Made by a program: the position numbers and the translations under genes. Shown piece by piece: positions 45,782-60,213 of a DNA stretch of 64,000 nt (its first letter is position 1; every line of letters starts with the position of its first letter). Below the pieces are notes generated by a model that saw only the letters and a program-made list of their open reading frames with translations, was not told the origin of the DNA and searched no databases. Origin of the DNA: an uncultured bacterium (GTDB taxonomy: Bacteria > Krumholzibacteriota > Krumholzibacteriia > JACNKJ01); contig CAVOFT010000001.1 of NCBI GenBank assembly GCA_963695095.1, positions 1,728,001 to 1,792,000 on the forward strand, given 5' to 3'.

Positions 45782-46876
45782 ATGGCGGGGCCTGCCGCCG
45801 GCTTCCGGCGCCTGCTTCTGCTCGCCGACGGCGCCCTGGCCAGGCCGAATGCGAAGACGGCCTTCGCCGTGCTGCGCTTCCAGCCGGAGCGAGCCGTGGC
45901 GCTGCTGGACCGCGAGACCGCCGGCTGCTCGGCCCAGGAGGTGCTGGGCTACGGGGGCGCGCTGCCCATCCTGGCCAGCGTCGCCGAGGCCCTGCCGCTG
46001 GCGCCCGACGGTCTGCTCGTCGGCGTCGCCCCGGCGGGCGGCGGCCTGCCCCCGGCCTACGTCCCCTTCTGCGTCGATGCCCTGGCCGCGGGTCTGGATC
46101 TCGCCAGCGGCCTGCATCGCTTTCTCGGTGAGGATCCCGAGTGGGCGTCGCGCGCGGCGAGCGGTGGCGCCCGCATCTGGGACCTGCGCCGACCGCCCGC
46201 AGCGCTGCGCGTGGCCACCGCGCCGCGGCCGCGGCGAGCGCGCGTGCTGCTCAGCGTGGGCAGCGACTGCAAGGTGGGCAAGATGACGGCCACCCTCCTC
46301 CTCGCCCGCGAGCTCGCAGCGCGCGGCCGGCGCGCGCGGGTGCTGGCCACGGGGCAGACCGGGCTCTTCCTCACCGGCGAGGGCATCTGCGTGGACGCCC
46401 TGCCGGCCGACTTCGTGGCCGGCGCCGTGCAGGCGGGTCTGGACGCCCTGGAGGGCGAGGCCGCGCCCGGTGCTACGCCGCCCGAGTGGCTGCTCGTCGA
46501 GGGCCAGGGTTCGCTCGCTCACCCCGCCTTCTCCGGCGTGAGCCTGGGCCTCCTCCACGGCAGCGCACCCGATGCGCTGCTGCTCTGCCATGAGGCCGGC
46601 CGGCGCCTCACCTCGCACATGGCGGACTGGCCGCTGCCGCCCCTGGCCGAAGTGCGCCGGCAGGTGGAAACCGCCGCGGCCTGGCTGAAGCCCGCTTCCG
46701 TCATCGCCGTGGCGCTGAACACGGCGGCCCTCGCCGAGAGCGCGGCGCGCGCCGCCTGCACGGAGCTCGCCGCCGAGCTCGGGCTCGCCGTCACCGATCC
46801 CCTGCGCTTCGGCGCGGCGGCCCTGGCCGACGCCCTGAGCGCCTTCCCGGGGAAGCAGAAGGAGGCTCCGGCATGA
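45782..46876 (+). CDS. DUF1611 family protein (DgcN-like D-glutamate N-acetyltransferase)
   Basis: [61 protein letters not shown]. Confidence 0.85.
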
Positions 46877-47931
46877 AGCCGCGGCTCACGATCGAGACCC
46901 TGCGCCTGACGACGCGCTATCCCTTTGTCATCGCGCGGGGCGGGGCGCAGCAGTTCGAGAATCTCGTCCTCGCGATCGAGGCCGACGGCCTCGTGGGCGA
47001 GGGCGAGGGCAGTCCCACGCACTACTATGGCGAGACGCCGGCAATCAGCCGCGCGGCGCTGGAGTTCCTGCTCGCGGAGCTGGCGGAGCCGCTGGCGGCG
47101 GCGCTCGCCACGCTGTCGCCGGAGGCCATCGCGGCCCTCATGGCCGCCGCCGATCGCCGGCTGGCCGGCAATCCGGCCGCCAAGGCCGCCCTGGACGGCG
47201 CGCTCTGGGACCTCCACGGCAAGCAGCAGGGCGCGCCCGTCTGGCGGCTGCTCGGATTCACGGAGCCCGCGCGCCTGGCCAGCTCCTTCACCATCGCCCT
47301 GGCTGAGCCCGAACTGATGCTCGCGCGGGCCGAGGAGGCGGTGGCGGCCGGCTACGGCATCCTCAAGCTCAAGGCCGGCAGCGAGCGGGACATCGAGCTG
47401 GTGGAGGCCGTCGCCGCGGCCACGGGTGCGCGCCTGCGCGTGGACGCGAACGGGAGCTGGCGCGCCGCCGATGCCCTCGCCAAGCTCGAGCGCCTGGCCA
47501 TGGCCGGCGTCGAGTTCGTCGAGCAGCCGCTGGAGCTGGACGACCTCGCCGGCTACCGCGCCCTCGTCAGTCGCGCGCCGCTGCCCATCGTGCTCGACGA
47601 GAGCGTCCACGATGCGCTGGGCCTGGAGGTCTTCGGCGAGCTGGCCGACGGCATCAACCTGAAGATCTCCAAGCTGGGCGGGATCACGCGTTCGCTCGCC
47701 CTCGCCCGCAGCGCGCGGGTCTTGAACCTCGACCTGATGATGGGCTGCATGATCGAAAGCAGTCTGGGCATTGCCCAGGCGCTGCAGCTCGCGCCTTTGC
47801 TGCGCTGGGCGGACCTGGACGGCGCGCTGCTGCTCGCCGCCGACCCCTACGCGGGCTTGACCGAGGCGGCGGGGGTCTTCACCCTGGGCGAGGAACCGGG
47901 TCTGGGCGTTCATCGGAGGGAGGCTCGCTGA
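46873..47931 (+). CDS. Dipeptide epimerase (L-Ala-D/L-Glu epimerase or DgcA-like), enolase superfamily
   Basis: [41 protein letters not shown]. Confidence 0.88.
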
Positions 47932-48446
47932 TGCGACTCAAGCAGGTGGCCGTGATCGGAGACGCGGAGGCTTCCGAAGCCGCCCTCGTCTTCGCCGAAG
48001 CGCTGGGCCGCGCCATCGGACGCCACGGCTGGGCGCTCGTCTCGGGCGGCCGGGACGGCGTGATGGGCGCGGCCAGCCGCGGCTGCCGCGCGGCGGGGGG
48101 CATCGTCGTCGGTATCCTGCCCAGCGCCGACGACAGCGCCGGCAACGAGCACTGCCAGGTGCTCCTGCCCACGGGCATGGGCTGGACGCGCAACAGTCTC
48201 ACCGCCCTGGCGGGGGACGTCGTCGTCGCCATCGGCGGCCGCGCCGGCACGCTCACCGAGATCGCCTATGCCTGGAGCTACGGCAAGCCCATCCTGGCCG
48301 CGACCGGCCTGGGCGGCTGGAGCGAGCGCCTGGCCGGCGAGGCCATCGACGACCGCCGACCCGACCGCCTGCAACCGGTGGCCACGGCGGCGGCGGCCGA
48401 GGCGGCCCTGCTGGCCCTGCTCGGCGAGGGCGAGGCCCGCGCGTGA
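47931..48446 (+). CDS. LOG/SLOG family nucleotide-binding protein (TIGR00725-like)
   Basis: GGRDGVMGAASRG, VGILP, TGMG..RN, GGRAGTLTEI. Confidence 0.85.
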   Translation: MRLKQVAVIGDAEASEAALVFAEALGRAIGRHGWALVSGGRDGVMGAASRGCRAAGGIVVGILPSADDSAGNEHCQVLLPTGMGWTRNSLTALAGDVVVAIGGRAGTLTEIAYAWSYGKPILAATGLGGWSERLAGEAIDDRRPDRLQPVATAAAAEAALLALLGEGEARA

Positions 48447-49708
48447 GGCCGCTGCCGCGCATCCGCGAATCCGGACTCCGCGAGCTGCCCAGGCGCCTCG
48501 TCTGGCTTGGCCTGGCCCTGGCGCTGGCCGAACGCCTGCTGGCCTGGCTCCTGCTCGGCGCCGGCCTGCCCACGCACGGCTTCGAATCCGGGGTGATCGC
48601 GGACAACCTGCTCGCCGGGCGCGGCTACACGATGCCCTTCTACTACTGCGACGTGCCGATCCGCTCCTTCATCCCGCCGCTCTATCCGCTGCTGATGGCG
48701 GCCGCCAAGGCGCTCAGCCCGCACTGGGTGCTCCTGCTCCAGGGCCTGCAAATCGCAGCCTCCCTGCTCAACGCCCTGCTCGCCGGCGAGATCGCGGGCC
48801 GCTGGTTCGGTCGCCGCGCGATGATCGGCAGCTTCTTCCTCGTCGCGCTCTACCCGGTCTTCGCGGTCTACTCGCTGGCCATCTTCTCGACCACGCTGAT
48901 CATGACCTGGGTGCTCGTCCTGGTGAACCTGATGGATCGCGTCGAGGCCCCGCATCCCCTGCGCATGGGCGGCCTGACCGGACTCTTCCACGGCCTGGCC
49001 ATTCTCACCTCGCCGCCGCTGGGCCTGCTCGGCCTGCTCTTCCTGTTCCGGCTCTGGCGCTTCCGGCACCCGGGGCGGCTGCGGCGCACCCTGGCCTACC
49101 TGGCGGTGCTCGCCGCCGTCTGGAGCCCCTGGGTCCTGCGCAATGCGCGCGTCCATGGCACGCTCCTGCTGACCAGCACGAACGGCGGCTTCAACTTCCT
49201 GGTCGGCAACAACCCGCATGCGGGCGGCTACACCTGGGGCGAGTTCACCCTGGAGGACAGGTTCTGGCAGGTGGTGGAGCGCGAGCGCGTGGACACGCTG
49301 CCCGAGCCGGCCCTCGAGCGCTGGTTCTACCGCCGCGCCCTGGGCTACATCGCCGCCGATCCCTGGCACTACCTGGGCTTCTTCCTGCAGAAGGTCTACT
49401 ACTTCTGGTGGTGCCGCGACGTCACGCGCTTCGGCTATCCGACGCCCTGGAGCGTCGCCTACCAGTCGCTCTACGCCTTCCTGTTGCCATTCGTTCTGCT
49501 GGGCCTGCTGCTCTGGGCCCGCCGCTGGCGCCGGCTCTTTCCGGCCTACTTCCTGTTCGCCCAGTACAGTCTGCTCTACGGGCTCTACTTCGTGCGCAGC
49601 CGCTTCCGGTGGGAGATCGAGCCCCTGCTCCTGGTGTTCGCCGTGGCCGGCTGGCTGGAGATCCTGCGCCGCTTGCGCGGCGGCGCCCGCGCAGAGGAGG
49701 AGTGGTGA
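48443..49708 (+). CDS. GT-C fold membrane glycosyltransferase (ArnT/PMT-like)
   Basis: Multi-TM; IADNLLAGRGY, PPLYP, PWVLRN, STNGGFNF..GNNP, RFR..IEP. Confidence 0.75.
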   Translation: MRPLPRIRESGLRELPRRLVWLGLALALAERLLAWLLLGAGLPTHGFESGVIADNLLAGRGYTMPFYYCDVPIRSFIPPLYPLLMAAAKALSPHWVLLLQGLQIAASLLNALLAGEIAGRWFGRRAMIGSFFLVALYPVFAVYSLAIFSTTLIMTWVLVLVNLMDRVEAPHPLRMGGLTGLFHGLAILTSPPLGLLGLLFLFRLWRFRHPGRLRRTLAYLAVLAAVWSPWVLRNARVHGTLLLTSTNGGFNFLVGNNPHAGGYTWGEFTLEDRFWQVVERERVDTLPEPALERWFYRRALGYIAADPWHYLGFFLQKVYYFWWCRDVTRFGYPTPWSVAYQSLYAFLLPFVLLGLLLWARRWRRLFPAYFLFAQYSLLYGLYFVRSRFRWEIEPLLLVFAVAGWLEILRRLRGGARAEEEW

Positions 49709-50133
49709 TCCATCCCATGCTCTGGGCCGCGCTCGCGAGCGGGCTGGCGGCCCAGCTCTACAAGGTGCTCGTCGAGAGTCTGCGCGAGCGGCGCCTGAAG
49801 CTCTACCGCTTCTTCGAAACCGGCGGCATGCCCAGCAGCCACACGGCCGTGGTGACCAGCCTCGCCGTCGGCGCCTGGCGGGTCAACGGCTTCGACTCGC
49901 CCTTGTTCGCGATCACGGCCGTCTTCAGCCTCTACTTCATCCTGGAGGCCACCGGTCTGCGCCAGGAGGTGGGCAAGCAGGCGCGGGTGCTCAACGAGAT
50001 CCTCGACGAGCTGATCGACACCCGCCATTTCGCCCGCGAGCGCACCCGCGAGCTGCTCGGCCACACCTGGAGCGAGGTGGGCTGGGGCTTCTTGCTCGGC
50101 CTGGTGGTGACCGTGCTGCTGGTCCGACCCTGA
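49705..50133 (+). CDS. Divergent PAP2 family protein (DUF212)
   Basis: AQLYK, TGGMPSSHTA, GLRQEVGKQARVLN, ELLGHT..EV. Confidence 0.9.
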   Translation: MIHPMLWAALASGLAAQLYKVLVESLRERRLKLYRFFETGGMPSSHTAVVTSLAVGAWRVNGFDSPLFAITAVFSLYFILEATGLRQEVGKQARVLNEILDELIDTRHFARERTRELLGHTWSEVGWGFLLGLVVTVLLVRP

Positions 50134-50161
50134 ACGCCGCCGATTCCCGAGCAGGAAATCC

Positions 50162-50190
50162 TTGACGGTTTTCGGACCTCGCCGCACCAT
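50162..50190 (+). promoter_or_regulatory. Putative sigma70 promoter of the ParA-CBM48 cluster
   Basis: TTGACG, 17 bp, CACCAT; a strong AGGAGGT RBS precedes ATG 50268. Confidence 0.45.
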
Positions 50191-50267
50191 CCGCAAGCGG
50201 AGACCCCGACAGCCCTGCGCGCCATCCGAGCGGGTCCTCCGGGCGCCCGGACTCAGGAGGTAATCGG

Positions 50268-51350
50268 ATGAAGGTACTGGCCGTCGTCAATCAGAAGGGG
50301 GGCTGCGGCAAGACCACCCTGGCGATCCACCTTGCCGCCGCCTGGGCCAAGGAGGGCTTCCGGGTCCTGCTCGTGGACCTCGATCCCCAGGGTCATGCCT
50401 CGCTCGGCCTCGGCGTCGAAGTCGAGAACTGCGCTCGCGGCTCCTACGATCTGCTCAGCGATCCCGCGGCGACGCTGGCCGAGATGGCCGTGCCGGTCCA
50501 GGCCCATCTCGACCTGGTGCCCGGCGGCATCATCCTCTCGGCCGCCGAGCAGGAGCTGGCCCGCCAGCCCGGACGGGAGAGCCGTCTGCGCAGCGCACTC
50601 CTGCGCCACGGGGGCGCCTACGACTGGGTCGTGGTGGATACGGCGCCTGCGGTGGGGCTGCTGACCTTCAATGCCCTGGTGGCGGCCGATGCCCTGCTCG
50701 TGCCCGTCGACAGCAGCACCTTCACCCTGCACGGCCTGCAGAAGATTCTCGAGACCCTGGAAGTGCTCGAAGAGGAAACGCGCCGCCGGCCGGCCTGCTT
50801 CGTGGCGGCCAACCAGTTCGACCCGCGCACGCTCTTCAGCCGCGAGCTCTATGCCGAGCTGGCGGCCAACAGCCGGATCCGTCTGCTCGAAACGCGCGTG
50901 CGCAGCAGCGTCCGCGTCAAGATGGCCGCCGCCGGCGGCGTGCCCGTCATGGACCTGGCGCAGCCGGGGCCCGTCCGCCTGGACTTCGAGAACCTGGCCG
51001 AGGAGCTGTGGAACCATCTCACCGAGCTCAGCCTGGAGCGGGACCGCGAACTGGAGTCCCTGCTCTTCGGCCCCCAGCTCTGCGAGGAGGGCATCCGCTT
51101 CCGCCTGCGCGCCCCCGAGGCGCGCGAGGTCTATCTCACCGGCAGCTTCAACCACTGGAATCCCGGCGGCATCCCGCTCGCGCCGCGACCCGGGGCCAGC
51201 GGCGCCTGGGAGGTCGTGCTGCCCCTGACGCCGGGCAACTACGAGTACCGCTACATCGTCGACGGCCGGTGGGTGACCGATCCCAGCCATCAGCAGACCC
51301 GCCTCAACGACCTGGGCGTGGAGAACTCGCTGCTCGTCGTCGGCGGCTAG
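50268..51350 (+). CDS. ParA/Soj-family ATPase fused to a C-terminal AMPK-beta-like glycogen-binding CBM48 domain
   Basis: NQKGGCGKTT, DLDPQGHAS, VDTAP; C-terminus VYLTGSFNHW...GNYEYRYIVDGRWVTDP...NDLGVENS. Confidence 0.9.
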   Translation: MKVLAVVNQKGGCGKTTLAIHLAAAWAKEGFRVLLVDLDPQGHASLGLGVEVENCARGSYDLLSDPAATLAEMAVPVQAHLDLVPGGIILSAAEQELARQPGRESRLRSALLRHGGAYDWVVVDTAPAVGLLTFNALVAADALLVPVDSSTFTLHGLQKILETLEVLEEETRRRPACFVAANQFDPRTLFSRELYAELAANSRIRLLETRVRSSVRVKMAAAGGVPVMDLAQPGPVRLDFENLAEELWNHLTELSLERDRELESLLFGPQLCEEGIRFRLRAPEAREVYLTGSFNHWNPGGIPLAPRPGASGAWEVVLPLTPGNYEYRYIVDGRWVTDPSHQQTRLNDLGVENSLLVVGG

Positions 51351-51366
51351 CGCGAAGGGGCGCCGC

Positions 51367-52069
51367 ATGAGGCCGGCGAGCGGAGAGCGACGCCAGAGCA
51401 ATCACATCCGCAGCATTTCCTGGCTCTTCCTGAGCGAGGGCAAGCGGCGCGCCGGCCCTGCCCCTGGCACCGCCCACTGCCTGCTGCCGCCTCGCGGGAG
51501 CGCCCGGCTCGCCCTGGTTGCTCGCCCTGGCCGTGAATCTGGGCCTCGCCGCTCGCCAGCGGGGCGAGAGCGCCTGCCTCGAGTTGCCGGCCGCCAGCCT
51601 CCCGGTGGCGGCCCGTCTTCTCGGCGCGGCGCCGGAGGCCCTCGGCCTCGACTGGCGCAGCGGCGCCGCGGCGCCCGCCTGGCTGGAGCCGCTGCCGGCG
51701 CTCTATCTCGCCTCCGCGCTGCCTACGCTGCCGCTGGGCCTGCCCGCCTGCCGCTGGCGCTTCCAGCTCGGCGAGGGGCCGCTGCCGGGGGCAAGTCCCG
51801 TCCTCGCCCTGCTGGAAGGTCCCGAAGCGCTGCTGCCGGCGGCGGCGGGCGCGCCGCTCTTCCTGCTTGGCCTGGAGTGCCTGCCGGTGCCCCGCCCCGG
51901 GGTGACGGGGATCTGGGGGCCGCTGGCTCGGCACCAGCTCCTCGATCCGCGCCGCGAAGGCACGCCTGCCCTCCGCGCGGGGGACGCAGCGGTCGCCCGC
52001 CGCTATGGCGGCTTCCTGGAAGCGCTCCGTTCCATGCCGGCGCCCAGTCGGCAGGAGCAGCCCGCATGA
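51367..52069 (+). CDS. Hypothetical protein, possibly a degenerate MinD/ParA-like partner; apparent frameshift at ~51515
   Basis: ATG 51367 frame gives MRPAS...HIRSISWLFLS; continues in the 51518 frame with LALAVNLGLAARQRG, resembling the helix after Walker A in ParA/MinD, but with no Walker A. Confidence 0.5.
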
Positions 52070-52389
52070 GCCCCGCCGCGCCCAGCCCTGCGCAGCTCCC
52101 GGCGATGGAGCCCGTGGTGGCCGTGCTCCTGCGGCGCTTCGAGCTGCAGCTCACCCAGCTCGACGCGCGCATCCGCCTCGAGGAGAGCCCCCTGCGCCGG
52201 GTCTATCGCCTCGACGATCAGGTGCTCGCCGTGCTGCATCTGCATCGGGACCTCTTCCGCCTGGAGACGGGCGGCGTACCGAGCTGGGAGGCCCGGATCC
52301 GCAGCCCGGAAGAGGCCCTGGCCGGCCTCGCCCGCGTGCTGGACCACTACTGGCGGCTCCTGGCGAGCGGCGCGCGGCGCGAAGCCTGA
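52066..52389 (+). CDS. Small hypothetical protein (107 aa)
   Basis: AGGAG RBS and ATGA overlap; compact alpha/beta pattern (LTQLDARIRLEESPLRRVY...). Confidence 0.6.
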   Translation: MSPAAPSPAQLPAMEPVVAVLLRRFELQLTQLDARIRLEESPLRRVYRLDDQVLAVLHLHRDLFRLETGGVPSWEARIRSPEEALAGLARVLDHYWRLLASGARREA

Positions 52390-52497
52390 GCCGCGCCGCG
52401 GCCGTCCCGATGCCCCTGGACTTGCCCCTGAGCTTGCGGCATCATGGCGGCCGGATTTGTCGCCACGGCCGCCAGGCCGCCAACCCCGGAGAGAGCC

Positions 52498-53943
52498 ATG
52501 AAGGACAAGGTGCTCGCGGCCATCGAGACGGCGCGCCTGCGCGGCGCCGACTACGCCGATGCCCGCTGGGTCGAGACCCGCACGGAAGAGCTGATGGTGA
52601 AGAACGGCGCCCTCGCTCTGGCCGAGCTGCGCGGCACGCAGGGGGTCGGCATCCGCGTGCTCAAGGGCGGCGCCTGGGGTTTCGCCGCCACGGATCGCCT
52701 GGAAGGCGACAGCCTCCCCGCGGCCGCTGCGCGCGCCGTTGCCCTGGCCGAAGCCAGCGCGCGGGTGATGGCCGAGCCCGTGCGCCTGGCCGCCGAGCCG
52801 GCGGTCAAGGCCAGCTGGGCGACGCCGCGCGCCATCGATCCCTTCGCGGTCGCCCGCGAGGAGAAGCTCGATCTGCTCAGCCGCGTCGAGCGGGAGCTGC
52901 ATGTCGACGAGCGGGTGAAGGTGGGCCAGGCCCAGATGCTCTTCGACCAGCAGAAGATCCTCTTCGTCTCCAGCGAGGGCGCCGAACTCGAGCAGGACCT
53001 GCTCACCAGCGGCGGCGGCCTGGTCGCCATCGCGGCGGACGGCAACACCATCGAGCGCCGCAGCTGGCCCAACTCGGCCGGCGGCATGCACCTGGGCGCG
53101 GGCTACGAGGTGATCGCCGAGTATGCGCTCGCGGACAACGCCCGCCGGGCGGCGGAAGAGGCCGTGGCCCTGCTCGGCGCCGATCCCTGCCCGGTGGGGG
53201 AGCGGGACATCCTGCTCGACTGGTCGCAGCTCGCCCTGCAGATCCACGAGTCCTGCGGGCACGCCAGCGAGCTGGACCGCGTGCTCGGCATGGAGGCCAA
53301 CTTCGCCGGCCGCAGCTTCCTGACGCCCGAGAAGCTGGGCGTGTTCACCTACGGCTCGCCGCAGGTGAACCTGGTCGCCGACAATACCCTGCCCCGGGGC
53401 CTGGCCACGCGCGGCTGGGACGATGAGGGCGTGGCGGCGCAGAAGTGGCATGTCGTCGAGAACGGGCGCTTCGCCGCCTATCTCACCAGCCGCGAGCTGG
53501 CCGCGGTGGAGAAGAACCCGCGCAGTCGCGGCTGCAATCGGGCCGAGGGCTGGAATCGCATTCCCATCATCCGCATTCCGAACCTCGGCCTGGCACCGGG
53601 CAGCTGGGAGCTGGACGATCTCATCGCCGACAGCGAAGACGGCATCTGGATGGAGACGAACCGCAGCTGGAGCATCGACCAGATGCGGCTGAATTTCCAG
53701 TTCTCCACCGAGATCGGCTGGGAGATCAAGAAGGGCAAGAAGGCGCGCATGCTGCGCGGCTGCACCTACCAGGGGCGCACGCCGGACTTCTGGGCCGCCT
53801 GCGATGCCGTCTGCAGCGAGAAGTGGTGGCGGCCCTATGGCGTCCTCAACTGCGGCAAGGGAGAGCCAGGGCAGATCGCCCGCATGACGCACGGCTCGGC
53901 CCCGGCCCGCTTCCGCAAGATCCGCGTGGGGGTGAGCGAATGA
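52498..53943 (+). CDS. tldD: TldD metalloprotease subunit
   Basis: YADAR, GIRVL..GAWGFA, HESCGH (HExxxH), ELDRV, DDEGV, NFQF, NCGKGEP. Confidence 0.92.
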   Translation: MKDKVLAAIETARLRGADYADARWVETRTEELMVKNGALALAELRGTQGVGIRVLKGGAWGFAATDRLEGDSLPAAAARAVALAEASARVMAEPVRLAAEPAVKASWATPRAIDPFAVAREEKLDLLSRVERELHVDERVKVGQAQMLFDQQKILFVSSEGAELEQDLLTSGGGLVAIAADGNTIERRSWPNSAGGMHLGAGYEVIAEYALADNARRAAEEAVALLGADPCPVGERDILLDWSQLALQIHESCGHASELDRVLGMEANFAGRSFLTPEKLGVFTYGSPQVNLVADNTLPRGLATRGWDDEGVAAQKWHVVENGRFAAYLTSRELAAVEKNPRSRGCNRAEGWNRIPIIRIPNLGLAPGSWELDDLIADSEDGIWMETNRSWSIDQMRLNFQFSTEIGWEIKKGKKARMLRGCTYQGRTPDFWAACDAVCSEKWWRPYGVLNCGKGEPGQIARMTHGSAPARFRKIRVGVSE

Positions 53944-55416: not shown

Positions 55417-55488
55417 TAACGCCTCTTGTCAGCGACATCACCCCTTCTGTCGCCCAGCGGACAGAAAACCACCACGCAGGAGACCCGG

Positions 55489-58400
55489 ATGTACGCTCGC
55501 CTTGCTCACCCTTTGCCTCGGCATTCCCTATCCCTGCGCCTGCTGCTCCTCACACTGCTCGTGCTCGCCAGCCTGCCCGCTGCCGCCGCTCAGATCGAGT
55601 GGACCTGGCGCGCCGAACCTGGCCTGCGCGCACTTGCAGACGGCGAGGATCTTGCCGCTCTGCTGGCTGAGCAAGCCTGGCAGACCGAGACGGCGGATCG
55701 CCCCGCCCTGCCCCTCTTCCCGCTCAGCCTGGCCATCCCCAGCGGCGAGCGCGTCGTGAGCGTTCATCTCGAAGACGTCCTGAGCGACCGCATCGCGCTG
55801 GACGCAGCGCTGCCCGCCTTCGCCGGCAGCGTGAACGAGGACGGGCTGCGCCGCGCGCTCTCGCCGCCTGCCGAGGGCGGCAGCTTCCCCGCGGACTTCC
55901 TCCATCTCTACAGCACCTTCCGCTACCGCGGCTTCGCCACGGCCGAAATCGCCCTGGCTCCTCTGCGCTACGAGGTGACGGCGGCGGGTCCCCTTCTCCA
56001 TCGCCTGCTCGCCGCCCGCGTGGTGGTGGAGACGGAGCCGGATCCCTCGGCGCTCATCCCCCTGCGCCAGCGCAGCGAGGACCTCGCGCGGGGCCAGCGC
56101 TTCCAGCAGCGCCGCGTCGCGAACAAGAACGCCGTCGCGGCCTTCGTTCCCCCCAGCGCGGTACGGCGTGACGAGGGCGTGTTCGCGCCGCGCTCCCTGC
56201 CCAGCATCGAGGGCAGCGGCGTGGACATGGTGATCGTCTGCTCGCCGCAGCACACCGCGACCTTCCAGACCCTGGCCGACTTCAAGCTCAGCCTGGGGCT
56301 GCCCACGGTGGTGCGCGACACCGACTGGATCCGCGCCAACTATCCCCAGGGCGCGGACCTGCAGGAGACGATCCGCTTCTTTCTCCAGGACGCCCTGGCC
56401 AAGTGGGGCATCCGCTTCGTGCTGCTGGCGGGCGACACCAATGACCTGCCCGTGCGCCGCATCTACTCCTACTTCAAGGATCCGCCGGAGGAGATTCCCG
56501 CCGAGCTCTACTTCGCCGACCTGGACGGCGACTGGAACGGCGACGGCGACTCGCACTTCGGCGAATCCACCTACGGCGGCACCCAGGGCGACGGCGTCGA
56601 CATGATCGCCGACGTCTTCCTCGGCCGCGTACCCGTGCGCGACGCCGCCAGCGCGCAGCTGATGGTCGACAAGATCATCGCCTACTCGAGCGCGCCGGAC
56701 CCCGACTACGCCACCAACATGAGCTTCTACGCCGAGGTGCTCTTTCCGGCGACCTGGCAGATCGGCGACCCCGTCGAGCTGATCACGCGCAACGGCGCCG
56801 ATTACGCGGAGAGCGTGAACAGCAGCTTCGTGACGCCGCAGATGGACGTGGTCCGCTTCTACGAGACGCACTGGCTGTATCCGGGCTCGGTGGCCGAGAC
56901 GCCGGCCGTGACGCTGAACGATATGAACACGCGCGCACATGTCGTGCTGCACGTCGGCCATGGCTTCCGCTACACGATGTCGATGGGCACCGGCTCGGTG
57001 GTCGCCAATGACATGCTGAACCTCACCAACGGCCTCGATCGGCTGGCCTCCATCTACGCGCTGAATTGCACGTCCTGCGCCATCGACTACAGCTGCCTCG
57101 GCGAGGCGGCGCTGCTGGCGCCGGCCGGCGGGGCCGTCTCGATGATCGGCACCATGCGCGAGGCCTTCCCCAACACCAGCGTCTACTACCAGAACTCCTA
57201 CTTCGGCTATCTCTACGGCGACAGCCTCAGCCTTGGCGAGTGCTTCACCAGGAGCCACAATGACTGGGCGCTGCTGGGCTCCGTCGAAGGCAGCCATCGC
57301 TGGACGCAGATGAGCTATCTGCTGATCGGCGATCCCTCGCTCGATGTCTGGCTGGACACGCCTCAGGCGCTGGCGGCCGCGCTCGTCGAACCCTACACGC
57401 TCACCAGCGACACCCTGAAGCTGCAGGTGAGCCGGGACGGCTCGCCGCTGGTCGGGGCCCGCGTGATCGCCAGCAAGCCGGGCGAGCATCGGGCGGAGGC
57501 GCTGAGCGACGCGGGCGGCTTCGTCGCCATTCCCTTCCGGGCGGAGTCGCTGGGGGACATCGAAGTCAGCCTGCTTCACCGCAACGATCTGCCCAGCTTC
57601 GCCCAGGTCCCGGTGACGGCGGGCAGCGGACCGCGCCTGGCTCTGGAACTGCTCAGCGTCGTCGACGACCCCAATGTCGATGCGCAGCTGGCCGGCAACG
57701 CCGATGGCCTGCTCGACGCCGGCGAGACCGTGCGCCTGGCCCTGCGCGTGCTGAACAGCGGCACGACGGCGGCGACGGCGCTCAACCTCGATCTCAGCCT
57801 GCCCGGCGGCGAGCTCAGCGTCCTCGACGGCCAGGAGGCGACCGGCCAGAGCGTGCCGGCCGGCGGTCAGCTCGACTTGCCCGCCGTCTTCCTGCTCGAG
57901 GCGCCGCAGACCCTCGCCGATCGCAGCAGCGCGCTGGTGGACATCGCGCTCAGCTACGGCGGCGGGACCGAAACGGACCAGCTCGAGCTGAGCGCCCACG
58001 CGCCGGTGCCCGGCCTGTTCACCTTCGTCATCGATGATGCAGCGGGCGACGGCGACGGCCAGCCGGACGCCGGCGAGACCTACAGCCTGATGCCCGTGTG
58101 GAAGAACTACGGCAGCACGCCGCTGGCGGGCTGGCAGGCCAGCCTGACGGCCATCGATCCGGCCGGCCAGGTGCTGGGCGGCCCCGTCGCCTTGCCGGGG
58201 CTGGGACTGCTCGAGCGCGGAGCCTCGGCGGGCATCAGCCTGCGCGAGACCAGCGTGGCCAGCCCCAACCGCTTCCAGCTCACGCTCAGCGGCCCGCTCG
58301 GGGAGGCGATCGTCGACACGATCACCGTGCGCCGGCCCACGCCCCCCGTTGGCCTGGAGCTCGATTCGAGCCAGGCCAGCACCGTCATCGACATGGCCTG

Positions 58401-60213
58401 GCTGATTCCGGCTCCGGCGCCGGCGGCCTATCTCGTCTACCGCAGCACCAGTCCCGGCGGACCCTACACGCTCGTGTCCACCGAGCCCACGCATCACGCC
58501 TACTTCCGCAACGATCAGCTGGCGGAGAGCACCACCTACTACTTCACCGTGGAGAGCGTGGACTCCTCGGGCTTCCGCAGCCCGCCCAGCGGCGAGTTCG
58601 CCTGGAGCACCAACCCGGCCATGCTCGACGGCTGGCCCCTGCAGACGAGCTTCGGCACCGCCAGCAGCCTGGTGATGGGCGACATCGACGGTGATGGCGA
58701 CAAGGAACTGGCAGCGGGCGCCGAGCTGCTCTACGCCTGGCACCACGACGGCGTCGAGATCTTCGACGGCGACGAAAACTCGGTCACCTACGGCGCGCTC
58801 AGCGCTGTCGGCGGCCAGTTCACCGCCGGCCTGGCGATGGCAGACGTCGACACGCTCTACCCGGGTCTGGAGATCATCGGCGCCTCGCGCGCGCCCAACG
58901 GCATCTACGTCTACCACGGCGACGGCACGCAGGCGCCGGGCTGGCCCAAGAGCCTGCCCAACTGGTGCTGGGCGACGCCCGCGGTGGGGGATGTCGACGG
59001 CGATGGCAGCGTGGAGATCTTCGCCGTCTGTCTGGACGGCACCCTGCGCGCCTGGAATGCCGACGGCACGCCGCAGATCGGCACGACGGGCATCTTCGCC
59101 AGCGGCCTCGGCAGCTGGTCGCGCTCGAGCCCCAGCCTCGCCAACCTGGACGGCGACGCCGATCTCGAAATCGTGCTCGGCAGTTCGGGCACAAGGAAGA
59201 TCTACGCCTTCAATCCGAACGGCAGCGCCGTGACGGGCTTCCCGGTCACCTTCACCGGCGAGATCCACTCCAGTCCCTCGCTGGGGGATCTCGACGGCGA
59301 CTACGACCTCGAGATTGTCTTCCTCTGCGAGAACGACTCGCTCTACGTGCTCAATCACAACGGCACCCGCTACCCGGGCTTCCCGGTCTACCTGGCCAGC
59401 AACGCGGCCGGGCTCGCGCCGAGTCCGGCGCTGGTCGACTTCGAGGACGATGGGCAGATGGAGATCGTGGCGGGCGGCGTGTTCGCCTACACCAGCATGA
59501 ACCTGACCGTGCTGAACAACCAGGGGCAGACCCTGCCGGGCTGGCCCAAGCACTTCGAGGAGAGCAGCGAGGCGAGCCCCGTGGTGATCGACCTCGACGG
59601 CGACGGCGAGCTGGAGATCCTGCTCGGCATGGAAACGGGCTACCTCTACGCCTTCAACGAGGACGGCAGCGACGTGGCCGGCTTCCCCATCCTCACGGAC
59701 GCCGAGCTGCGCAGCTGCCCGACGGCCGACGATCTGGATGGGGATCTCGACCTCGACATCGGACTCTACGGCTGGGACGCCTTCGTCTACGTGTGGGACA
59801 TGTCCGTCTTCTACAAGAACGGCCTGCCGCAGTGGAAGATGTTCCGCGCCAATCCGGCGCGGACGGGCCTGTTCACGCGCGAGGAGCAGATGACGCCCAG
59901 CGAGGAGCTGCCGGCGAGCGCGCCGGAAGGCCGGCTCTATGCCAATTTCCCGAACCCCTTCAACCCCAGCACGAAGATCAGCTTCGCCACGCCGGCGGGA
60001 CAGGGCAGCGTGCAGGTGACGCTCACGATCCACGACGTGCAGGGCCGCCGTCTGGCGACGCTGCAGGATGGCCTGCTGCCGCGGGGCACGATGCAGAACG
60101 CCGTCTGGGACGGCAAGGCGGAGACCGGCAAGCCCGTGGCCAGCGGCATCTACTTTGCGCGCGTGACCATGGACGACACCGTGCATGCACGCAAGATGGT
60201 GCTGCTGAAGTAG
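55489..60213 (+). CDS. Large secreted C25 (gingipain-family) cysteine peptidase with propeptide, Ig/FnIII domains, FG-GAP repeats and a FlgD/T9SS-like C-terminal domain
   Basis: AGGAG RBS; signal peptide; FVLLAGD, YFADLDGDW, FLGRVP, HVGHG (His) and LNCTS (Cys), LIGDP; 8 repeats of D(L/V)DGDG..EI; tail NFPNPFNPSTKISF...WDG...SGIYFARV...RKMVLLK. Confidence 0.88.
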   Translation: MYARLAHPLPRHSLSLRLLLLTLLVLASLPAAAAQIEWTWRAEPGLRALADGEDLAALLAEQAWQTETADRPALPLFPLSLAIPSGERVVSVHLEDVLSDRIALDAALPAFAGSVNEDGLRRALSPPAEGGSFPADFLHLYSTFRYRGFATAEIALAPLRYEVTAAGPLLHRLLAARVVVETEPDPSALIPLRQRSEDLARGQRFQQRRVANKNAVAAFVPPSAVRRDEGVFAPRSLPSIEGSGVDMVIVCSPQHTATFQTLADFKLSLGLPTVVRDTDWIRANYPQGADLQETIRFFLQDALAKWGIRFVLLAGDTNDLPVRRIYSYFKDPPEEIPAELYFADLDGDWNGDGDSHFGESTYGGTQGDGVDMIADVFLGRVPVRDAASAQLMVDKIIAYSSAPDPDYATNMSFYAEVLFPATWQIGDPVELITRNGADYAESVNSSFVTPQMDVVRFYETHWLYPGSVAETPAVTLNDMNTRAHVVLHVGHGFRYTMSMGTGSVVANDMLNLTNGLDRLASIYALNCTSCAIDYSCLGEAALLAPAGGAVSMIGTMREAFPNTSVYYQNSYFGYLYGDSLSLGECFTRSHNDWALLGSVEGSHRWTQMSYLLIGDPSLDVWLDTPQALAAALVEPYTLTSDTLKLQVSRDGSPLVGARVIASKPGEHRAEALSDAGGFVAIPFRAESLGDIEVSLLHRNDLPSFAQVPVTAGSGPRLALELLSVVDDPNVDAQLAGNADGLLDAGETVRLALRVLNSGTTAATALNLDLSLPGGELSVLDGQEATGQSVPAGGQLDLPAVFLLEAPQTLADRSSALVDIALSYGGGTETDQLELSAHAPVPGLFTFVIDDAAGDGDGQPDAGETYSLMPVWKNYGSTPLAGWQASLTAIDPAGQVLGGPVALPGLGLLERGASAGISLRETSVASPNRFQLTLSGPLGEAIVDTITVRRPTPPVGLELDSSQASTVIDMAWLIPAPAPAAYLVYRSTSPGGPYTLVSTEPTHHAYFRNDQLAESTTYYFTVESVDSSGFRSPPSGEFAWSTNPAMLDGWPLQTSFGTASSLVMGDIDGDGDKELAAGAELLYAWHHDGVEIFDGDENSVTYGALSAVGGQFTAGLAMADVDTLYPGLEIIGASRAPNGIYVYHGDGTQAPGWPKSLPNWCWATPAVGDVDGDGSVEIFAVCLDGTLRAWNADGTPQIGTTGIFASGLGSWSRSSPSLANLDGDADLEIVLGSSGTRKIYAFNPNGSAVTGFPVTFTGEIHSSPSLGDLDGDYDLEIVFLCENDSLYVLNHNGTRYPGFPVYLASNAAGLAPSPALVDFEDDGQMEIVAGGVFAYTSMNLTVLNNQGQTLPGWPKHFEESSEASPVVIDLDGDGELEILLGMETGYLYAFNEDGSDVAGFPILTDAELRSCPTADDLDGDLDLDIGLYGWDAFVYVWDMSVFYKNGLPQWKMFRANPARTGLFTREEQMTPSEELPASAPEGRLYANFPNPFNPSTKISFATPAGQGSVQVTLTIHDVQGRRLATLQDGLLPRGTMQNAVWDGKAETGKPVASGIYFARVTMDDTVHARKMVLLK
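58678..59770 (+). repeat. About 8 FG-GAP/VCBS-type Ca-binding protein repeats within the C25 gene
   Basis: GDIDGDGDKEL, ADVDTLYPGLEI, GDVDGDGSVEI, ANLDGDADLEI, GDLDGDYDLEI, VDFEDDGQMEI, IDLDGDGELEI, DDLDGDLDLDI, with intervening PGWP/TGFP motifs. Confidence 0.8.

Follow-up and report, generated by a model that had tools for sequence, protein, structure and literature searches.

The closest described counterpart of the locus analysed here comes from a computational study. A bioRxiv preprint of 22 Oct 2026 (10.64898/2026.10.19.760177), computational only, describes, in the part of its text accessible to us, a 'ParA-CBM' system (branch ConB5) in which a ParA ATPase carries a C-terminal carbohydrate-binding module (CBM) of the AMPK1_CBM family; one variant adds a fast-evolving inactive ParA and an inactive protein of restriction-endonuclease fold, and immunity is deduced there from rapid divergence of the CBM and from sporadic distribution. 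We have analysed a gene set of this kind in a 64,000-nt stretch of DNA from an uncultured bacterium of the Krumholzibacteriota (GenBank assembly GCA_963695095.1, contig CAVOFT010000001.1, positions 1,728,001 to 1,792,000), which we call the window and whose own numbering is used below. The set comprises a gene for a ParA-AMPK1_CBM fusion protein (ParA-CBM) and two downstream open reading frames (ORFs), of which ORF2 codes for a second, inactive ParA and ORF3 for a further small protein, and it thus has the make-up given for 'ParA-CBM'. The module is real and well conserved, and it has already been described in silico with a different interpretation. A preliminary description of this DNA knew of no characterised system of this kind; this holds for experiments, in that our literature search found no experimental paper on ParA-CBM and only the computational preprint, but the gene set itself is already there, read as immunity.

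The class to which the window belongs departs from that account. According to the accessible text of the preprint the CBM diverges rapidly and the spread is sporadic, whereas in this clade the CBM matches the ATPase in conservation (identity to the window 0.46 vs 0.45) and the fusion, present in 32 of 41 genomes, follows taxonomy; the third protein has a restriction-endonuclease fold in the preprint, while our searches with ORF3 gave only non-specific alpha/beta matches. We tentatively suggest, with somewhat less than even confidence, a housekeeping-type ParA module that is passed on vertically and has cytoplasmic alpha-glucan (glycogen) for its cargo, with ParA-CBM acting as an ATP-switchable nucleoid tether.

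By sequence, the closest system is chromosomal ParABS (8ray; 1wcv, 2bek; described in the available part of PMC12462528), which shares the deviant Walker A motif, the two DNA-binding arginines, and a partner with an N-terminal peptide in which hydrophobic residues surround one basic residue. It differs in that our locus has no ParB, CTPase or parS, in that the partner is a dead MinD/FleN fold and the ATPase bears a CBM, and in that the window's genome has a separate canonical ParAB pair. McdA/McdB and other orphan ParA/MinD systems resemble the locus in having an orphan ATPase, a dedicated small partner and a cargo other than DNA (here a predicted one), and McdA structures match the ATPase part of ParA-CBM at E 5e-15. 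However, McdB both binds the cargo and activates the ATPase, whereas here the cargo module is on the ATPase, and neither ORF2 nor ORF3 showed homology to McdB.

The ParA-CBM protein

The G+C content of the window is about 72%, for which reason many of its long ORFs are spurious, and reading frames were chosen by third-position GC (GC3). The ParA-CBM ORF (50268-51350, + strand; 360 aa) has a GC3 of 0.8-0.97 and is a genuine gene; there is no GC anomaly at the locus. A Shine-Dalgarno-like GGAGG, read from the sequence at 50256-50260 (+), lies 7 nt ahead of the ATG, as the ribosome-binding site claimed in the preliminary description would require. The promoter proposed there was not recovered: a sigma-70 scan of 49600-52600 returned 0 sites, with 0.0 expected, and the promoter type of the host may differ from sigma-70. 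A terminator scan at the ParA-CBM locus found none.

Residues 1-255 (50268-51032, +) are assigned to a ParA/Soj-type ATPase domain by the AAA_31 family and by residue conservation; the Pfam AAA_31 match covers residues 1-171 with E 2.3e-43. All motifs listed for ParA-CBM were found, namely KGGCGKT, DLDPQG, FDPRT (R187), SVRV (R216), GSFNHW and YRYIVDGRW. The deviant Walker A motif KGGCGKT spans residues 10-16, and D37/D39 and D124 are also in place. Conservation was assessed over a set of 119 fusion proteins, consisting of the window's own and 118 of the 120 best matches, namely those 340-400 aa long. Within this set the catalytic residues are near-invariant (K10 in 118; K15, D37 and D124 in all 119), in full agreement with the intact Soj-like ATPase that had been claimed. 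Of solved structures, ParA 8ray of M. xanthus (E 1e-36) comes nearest, followed by Soj 1wcv of T. thermophilus (E 2e-33).

The two basic residues by which Soj binds DNA are retained, as had been proposed: R187 is kept in 118 of the 119 proteins, and at position 216 there is R in 73, K in 37 and V in 6 of them. Soj 1wcv and ParA 8ray have the aligned arginines within 'DGRT' and 'NVRL', and the spacing of R187 and R216, 29 residues, equals that of R189 and R218 in B. subtilis Soj, which the accessible part of PMC3778016 describes as the basic residues for non-specific DNA binding. DNA binding by ParA-CBM is predicted to be of the Soj type. As the preliminary description had noted, there is no parB nearby; neither a cognate ParB nor parS was found alongside ParA-CBM, the downstream genes are not ParB, and the sole ParB_N match in the genome (C1:150098-150373) stands beside a canonical 259-aa ParA, about 1.6 Mb from the locus.

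A linker (residues 256-283; 51033-51116, +) is the least conserved section of ParA-CBM, with a mean top-residue frequency among the 119 proteins of 0.48, where the ATPase has 0.61 and the CBM 0.62. Next comes a CBM48/AMPK-beta-like module (residues 284-358, with the stop codon 51117-51350, +), which is recognised by two Pfam families, both well over cut-off: AMPK1_CBM on residues 284-358 (E 3.5e-13; 50.0 bits vs a cut-off of 26.8) and CBM_48 on residues 267-335 (E 4.4e-11; 43.4 bits vs 22.4). The joining of the ATPase to an AMPK-beta-like module, the central claim of the preliminary description, is therefore confirmed, and the likeness extends to the ligand site. The tail aligns with the CBMs of AMPK beta1 and beta2 (1z0m and 4y0g, E ~2e-9; see also 1z0n), and when the sugar contacts of AMPK beta1 are compared, W100, W133, L146 and N150 are identical, K126 is replaced by Arg and T148 by Val. 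Nearly all of the 119 fusion proteins retain W297 (118), W335 (117) and N353 (116), and at position 328 Arg prevails, in 109, over His (6) and Lys (4). Mutants of AMPK at W100, K126 and W133 lose glycogen binding, according to the part of PMC6274970 available to us. The host protein is nonetheless a bacterial ATPase and not a kinase scaffold, and glycogen binding by ParA-CBM is a prediction.

Judged by identity to the window, the CBM evolves no faster than the ATPase: the two values are 0.46 for the CBM and 0.45 for the ATPase in 104 distant fusion proteins, and 0.75 and 0.80 in 14 close ones.

The same genome has AMPK1_CBM-like domains in two other proteins, a 542-aa Omp85-family protein with a signal-peptide-like start (L002:358-1986, - strand) and a 131-aa lipoprotein-like protein (L003:1378-1773, + strand). 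The AMPK contact sites are fewer in these copies; the Omp85-linked copy is without the Asn, and the small protein is without most of them.

Conservation and descent of the module

The distribution of the module was examined in 41 genomes of the Krumholzibacteria-like class, the window's own included. The full-length fusion is present in 32 of them, in one copy each, and identities fall from 88-92% within the genus to 75-82% within the family and 38-48% in other families. A maximum-likelihood tree was built from 25 fusion proteins and rooted for drawing with canonical ParA, four rows of family f6 being left out. It requires 8 label changes for 9 groups (8 families plus the outgroup), which is the minimum; shuffled labels gave a mean of 17.1, and none of 200 shuffles was as low. 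Families f1-f4 each form one branch. The tree is thus congruent with taxonomy, and by this measure the fusion is vertically inherited within the class.

ORF2 and ORF3 lie directly downstream of the fusion in all 20 loci first examined, so that the three-gene neighbourhood postulated in the preliminary description is indeed conserved. For hidden Markov models (HMMs) of the two proteins, 17 of the 20 loci served for ORF2 and 15 for ORF3; the other 3 and 6 were independent finds, at E 1e-42 to 3e-18. The ORF3 profile detects the protein in 23 of the 41 genomes, always on the same contig and within ~2 kb downstream of the fusion, and in none of the 9 class genomes without the fusion. In carriers of families f2 and f6 the ORF3 HMM matched none of 9 loci, and the ORF2 HMM matched 3 of these nine; reading by eye for the N-terminal motif revealed ORF2 in at least 4 (L025, L027, L031 and L033). 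Among 38 full-length loci of other phyla, the class-built HMMs detected ORF2 in no more than 9 and ORF3 in no more than 3. As both proteins are fast-evolving, we take such misses to show the limited reach of the HMMs and not absence. In the f2 and f6 loci L025-L033 a large polytopic membrane protein with a common stretch 'GRD.GAG.QP' follows the cassette.

In species genomes at large, at least 598 stretches have the signature NQKGGCGK together with the fusion; Planctomycetota, Omnitrophota, Desulfobacterota, Myxococcota, Eisenbacteria, Rokubacteria and others are named in their record titles.

ORF2 and ORF3

ORF2 (51367-52069, +), identified by GC3, by single-frame homologues and by a FleN profile match, codes for a nucleotide-blind partner of FleN/MinD fold. 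A profile of 20 ORF2 homologues matches FleN 5j1j with E 7.2e-10, and the model of a same-genus ORF2 (pLDDT 83) matches BcsQ 6yb5 (E 1.6e-4, TM score 0.50), then Soj, MinD and McdA; on the model, the BcsQ match reads as a general SIMIBI-fold match. ORF2 thus shares its fold with FleN/FlhG and BcsQ, but differs from them in its fast evolution, in its ParB-like N-terminal peptide and in the loss of Walker A: a GK[ST] at the P-loop position was found in 0 of the 20 homologues, in which three GK[ST] strings occur elsewhere.

The preliminary description spoke of a Walker-A-less MinD-like ORF with a short motif, HIRSISWLFLS, at its N-terminus. The fold and the missing Walker A stand; the motif and the body of the protein, however, are in different frames as assembled. 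The motif is in the frame of the ATG at 51367, and the body (51518-52069, by GC3) is in the next, so that ORF2 is frameshifted in the assembly, whereas in relatives motif and body share one frame. We assembled four public sequencing runs over the locus (best word share of any run 0.15), and the single 151-nt contig that spans 51445 (2 mismatches, depth 3) is without one base at that position; the remainder of ORF2, and ORF3, received no useful coverage from these runs. If base 51445 is left out, a single 233-aa frame of 51367-52069 results, and of the first 70 residues of this corrected ORF2, 68 align to a same-genus copy and 49 of those are identical. The glgA gene of the same assembly (C1:1991031-1992480) likewise consists of two adjacent pieces in different frames, covering TIGR02095 positions 2-174 and 184-476; a second apparent frameshift in a two-contig assembly fits indel errors. 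Because the contig lacks the extra base and glgA is similarly split, we think that the ORF2 shift is an assembly error, on the basis of one contig at depth 3 plus the split glgA; a real mutation may also lie behind it. Programmed frameshifting was considered and set aside, as the relatives have ORF2 in a single frame and the contig is without the extra base. In a same-genus ORF2 (L005, G001:C42) we observed an exact internal tandem duplication of ~34 residues, which could be real or an assembly artefact of that 430-contig genome.

The most conserved stretch of the ORF2 alignment is the N-terminal peptide NHIRSISWLFLS (51400-51435, +), with the class consensus HIRDISHLFLS, in which hydrophobic residues surround one Arg. 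The N-terminal 35 residues that hold it are of low confidence in the monomer model (pLDDT 48-57 at the peptide). The ParA-binding peptide of ParB is described likewise, as hydrophobic residues around a basic residue, in the accessible part of PMC12462528, and the N-terminus of the genome's own ParB, LGKGLDAILS, resembles the ORF2 peptide. We therefore regard the latter as a candidate ParA-binding and activating motif, the likeness to ParB being short and only suggestive.

Of the complexes with the partners suggested in the preliminary description, that with ORF2 was modelled. A dimer of ParA(1-260) with ATP and Mg was folded against full-length ORF2, using same-genus proteins and our own alignments. 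The median score was 0.50, compared to 0.29 for the best of 3 controls, which the tool rates as weak support. The score mark is reached by 116 of 157 solved complexes and by 2 of 215 mismatched pairs, and only 18 of the 157 scored 0.60 or under, but these benchmark counts are only a rough guide here, given that our own alignments were used and small molecules were included. The runs share at least 52% of contacts and the partner pLDDT is at least 65, with no interface reported; likeness to solved ParA-ParB-type complexes, remembered by the model, may contribute to the score. The modelling thus lends weak support to binding of ORF2 to the ParA dimer.

ORF3 (52066-52389, +) is the ATGA-coupled 107-aa ORF of the preliminary description and was found as stated there, overlapping ORF2 at 52066-52069. 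Its model (pLDDT 85) consists of a helix, five strands and a helix, and it belongs to no known family: searches of Pfam, PDB profiles and the Atlas (best 0.80) gave no family, and Foldseek with the model gave nothing at E <= 1e-3. An exhaustive structure alignment (VIA) returned Med17C, YjbR, Nqo15 and frataxins, with Z 8.7 and 8.2 for the two best and values down to 7.3, which the tool itself rates as non-specific. With regard to the restriction-endonuclease fold, no nuclease is among the Foldseek or VIA matches, although a missing match does not exclude the fold.

Function and genomic setting

We suggest that an ATP-bound ParA-CBM dimer would sit non-specifically on the nucleoid via R187 and R216, with its two C-terminal CBM48 modules gripping glycogen particles; since these two CBMs would hold the glycogen, the ATPase would itself be the switchable tether between granule and chromosome. 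ORF2 would offer its N-terminal peptide to the dimer and thereby bring about ATP hydrolysis and release, and turnover of the tether would space or partition the granules, with ORF3 possibly acting as a small adaptor of ORF2. If positioning of this kind takes place, it would add a carbohydrate polymer to the DNA and protein bodies served by ParA-type partition. Such a layout would set the module apart from every known ParA system: the motor itself would carry the cargo-binder, and a dead paralogue would do the activating. We know of no bacterial system that places or shares out glycogen, and it is possible, if doubtful, that the module is the first nucleoid-based tether or partition system for a polysaccharide granule, with the cargo module in ParA and a nucleotide-blind MinD fold in the role of ParB, spread over many mostly uncultured phyla.

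The occurrence of glycogen genes agrees with this proposal in part. In the genome of the window we found glgA (split over two frames, as described above), two GH57 genes and a TIGR02094 alpha-glucan phosphorylase; classical glgB (TIGR01515) and GlgP (PF00343) were not found at the thresholds used. Among the 32 genomes with the fusion, glgA is over cut-off in 27 and at least one of five alpha-glucan enzyme families is present in 30; for the 9 genomes without it the numbers are 2 and 6. The co-occurrence with glg genes anticipated in the preliminary description is thus seen, but with exceptions. Of the carriers without glgA over cut-off, G029 shows a piece of glgA where a contig ends, and G015 and G035 have a phosphorylase-GH57 cluster plus a weak glycosyltransferase match. 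The five fusion-less genomes of family f1 (G004, G005, G009, G010 and G011) are also without glgA, and the non-carrier G038 (64% complete) has glgA, glgB and GH57. We also observed an in-frame TGA in the alpha-glucan phosphorylase genes G004:C12:91778-93430 and G009:C24:37857-39509, which would fit a decay of glycogen metabolism in the genus of these two genomes.

A number of observations weigh against a glycogen tether. Two carriers, G030 and G040, both 96% complete, have no glgA, glgB, GH57, phosphorylase of either family or GH13, which touches on the condition under which the preliminary description would give up its proposal, and G022 (98% complete) has a full glycogen gene set and no fusion. 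As the genomes are kin, the co-occurrence amounts to two or three independent loss events only. No glycogen genes lie beside the fusion in the class loci examined, and in other phyla only 4 of 80 loci have one in the fetched flanks (GH57 in three, glgB in one), so that linkage across phyla is a weak enrichment at most. The Pfam name alone is insufficient for glycogen binding, because AMPK1_CBM-like domains also sit in the Omp85-family and lipoprotein-like proteins of this genome, which cannot meet glycogen. In classical ParA systems it is the activator, and not the ATPase, that sits on the cargo, and we know of no precedent for a ratchet with the cargo-binder on the ATPase. Finally, ORF2 evolves fast: within the genus its identity is 57%, compared to 92% for ParA and 90% for ORF3. 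This is the sole conflict-like trait of the module, and it remains; the preprint, in its accessible text, takes fast evolution as a signature of conflict (10.64898/2026.10.19.760177).

The same domain and residue evidence would also serve for a sensor of glycogen status, in which the CBM would signal whether alpha-glucan is present, or how large it is, to the Soj-like switch, and this switch, together with ORF2 and ORF3, would regulate the nucleoid state, replication initiation, division or the recruitment of glycogen enzymes. Soj itself regulates DnaA, a cargo-binder on a switch protein fits sensing better than a ratchet, and a single-copy, vertically inherited gene is in keeping with such a role, as is the CBM of AMPK, which is itself a regulatory glycogen sensor (PMC6274970, available part). 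We nevertheless consider a sensor rather unlikely, given that no output domain or regulated target is visible in the cassette and that ORF2 and ORF3 belong to no DNA-binding or enzymatic family; the two carriers without glycogen enzymes speak against it as well. These carriers would instead fit a CBM-like beta-sandwich that binds a protein partner or another glycan, in a module that would place a different cargo, for instance machinery for an envelope polysaccharide, much as BcsQ does. By structure, ORF2 is most like BcsQ of the cellulose secretion system, DUF212 and a PMT_2 glycosyltransferase are neighbours, the f2 and f6 loci have the polytopic membrane protein downstream, and extracytoplasmic proteins of the genome carry AMPK1_CBM-like domains. 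However, the ParA-fused CBM keeps 4 of 4 compared AMPK contacts (W100, K126 as Arg, W133 and N150), which the Omp85-linked and small-protein copies have in part lost, the DUF212 linkage is confined to the lineage and that of PMT_2 to one family, and the BcsQ match reflects the general SIMIBI fold at a TM score of 0.5; a cargo other than glycogen thus appears improbable.

The interpretation of the preprint, finally, would make the module an immune or conflict system, in which the lectin-like CBM senses an infection carbohydrate, ParA multimers contain the invader, and the inactive ParA and the nuclease-fold protein are extra sensors; if true, a glycogen-type lectin would serve as an infection sensor. 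The preprint describes exactly this gene set as far as its accessible text goes, and the fast evolution of ORF2, the spread of the signature across many phyla and a SLOG-family gene three genes upstream, with weak PADLOC domain matches, all point the same way. Yet the fusion is single-copy in most genomes of the class, with a tree that mirrors taxonomy and with conserved housekeeping flanks; the CBM is conserved like the ATPase, with near-invariant sugar-contact residues, contrary to the rapid divergence reported; and module loss accompanies glgA loss in two lineages. In PADLOC-DB 2.0, ORF2 (the L006 copy) and ORF3 matched 0 families and ParA-CBM matched PDC-M28B only, with E 2.7e-4 over 33 residues of the P-loop, and fold searches did not reproduce the nuclease fold for ORF3, an outcome that is itself inconclusive. 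Evolutionary rate, ligand site, descent and context favour a housekeeping gene over a conflict system, and we regard immunity as distinctly improbable for this class. Positioning and immunity predict opposite, simple outcomes, and the choice between them is thus directly testable.

The genes around the module are those for DUF1611, a dipeptide epimerase, a SLOG-family protein, a PMT_2 glycosyltransferase, DUF212, TldD/PmbA and a giant protein with a C25 peptidase. An upstream neighbour of ParA-CBM codes for a DUF212 (divergent PAP2) membrane protein (49699-50133, +; Pfam PF02681, E 9.2e-38). Of 29 class loci, 25 have this gene upstream and on the strand of the fusion; among the four others is L029, whose upstream sequence is only ~300 nt long. 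Outside the lineage the gene was seen in 4 of 38 full-length loci, all of them Krumholzibacteria-like. Since it is seen elsewhere in Krumholzibacteria-like loci only, we take it as lineage synteny; it is probably a lineage-specific neighbour and not part of the core module.

Further upstream, the window contains at 45782-48446 the DUF1611 gene, an enolase-superfamily (dipeptide-epimerase-like) gene and the gene for a 171-aa SLOG cluster-4 protein; the PADLOC domain matches of the last are to PsyrA and ShosA and are weak (E 8.5e-9 and 1e-6, over ~60 residues). Downstream, a protein of ~1575 aa (55486-60213) has a Peptidase_C25 domain, FG-GAP repeats and a C-terminal FlgD_ig domain; it is probably secreted.

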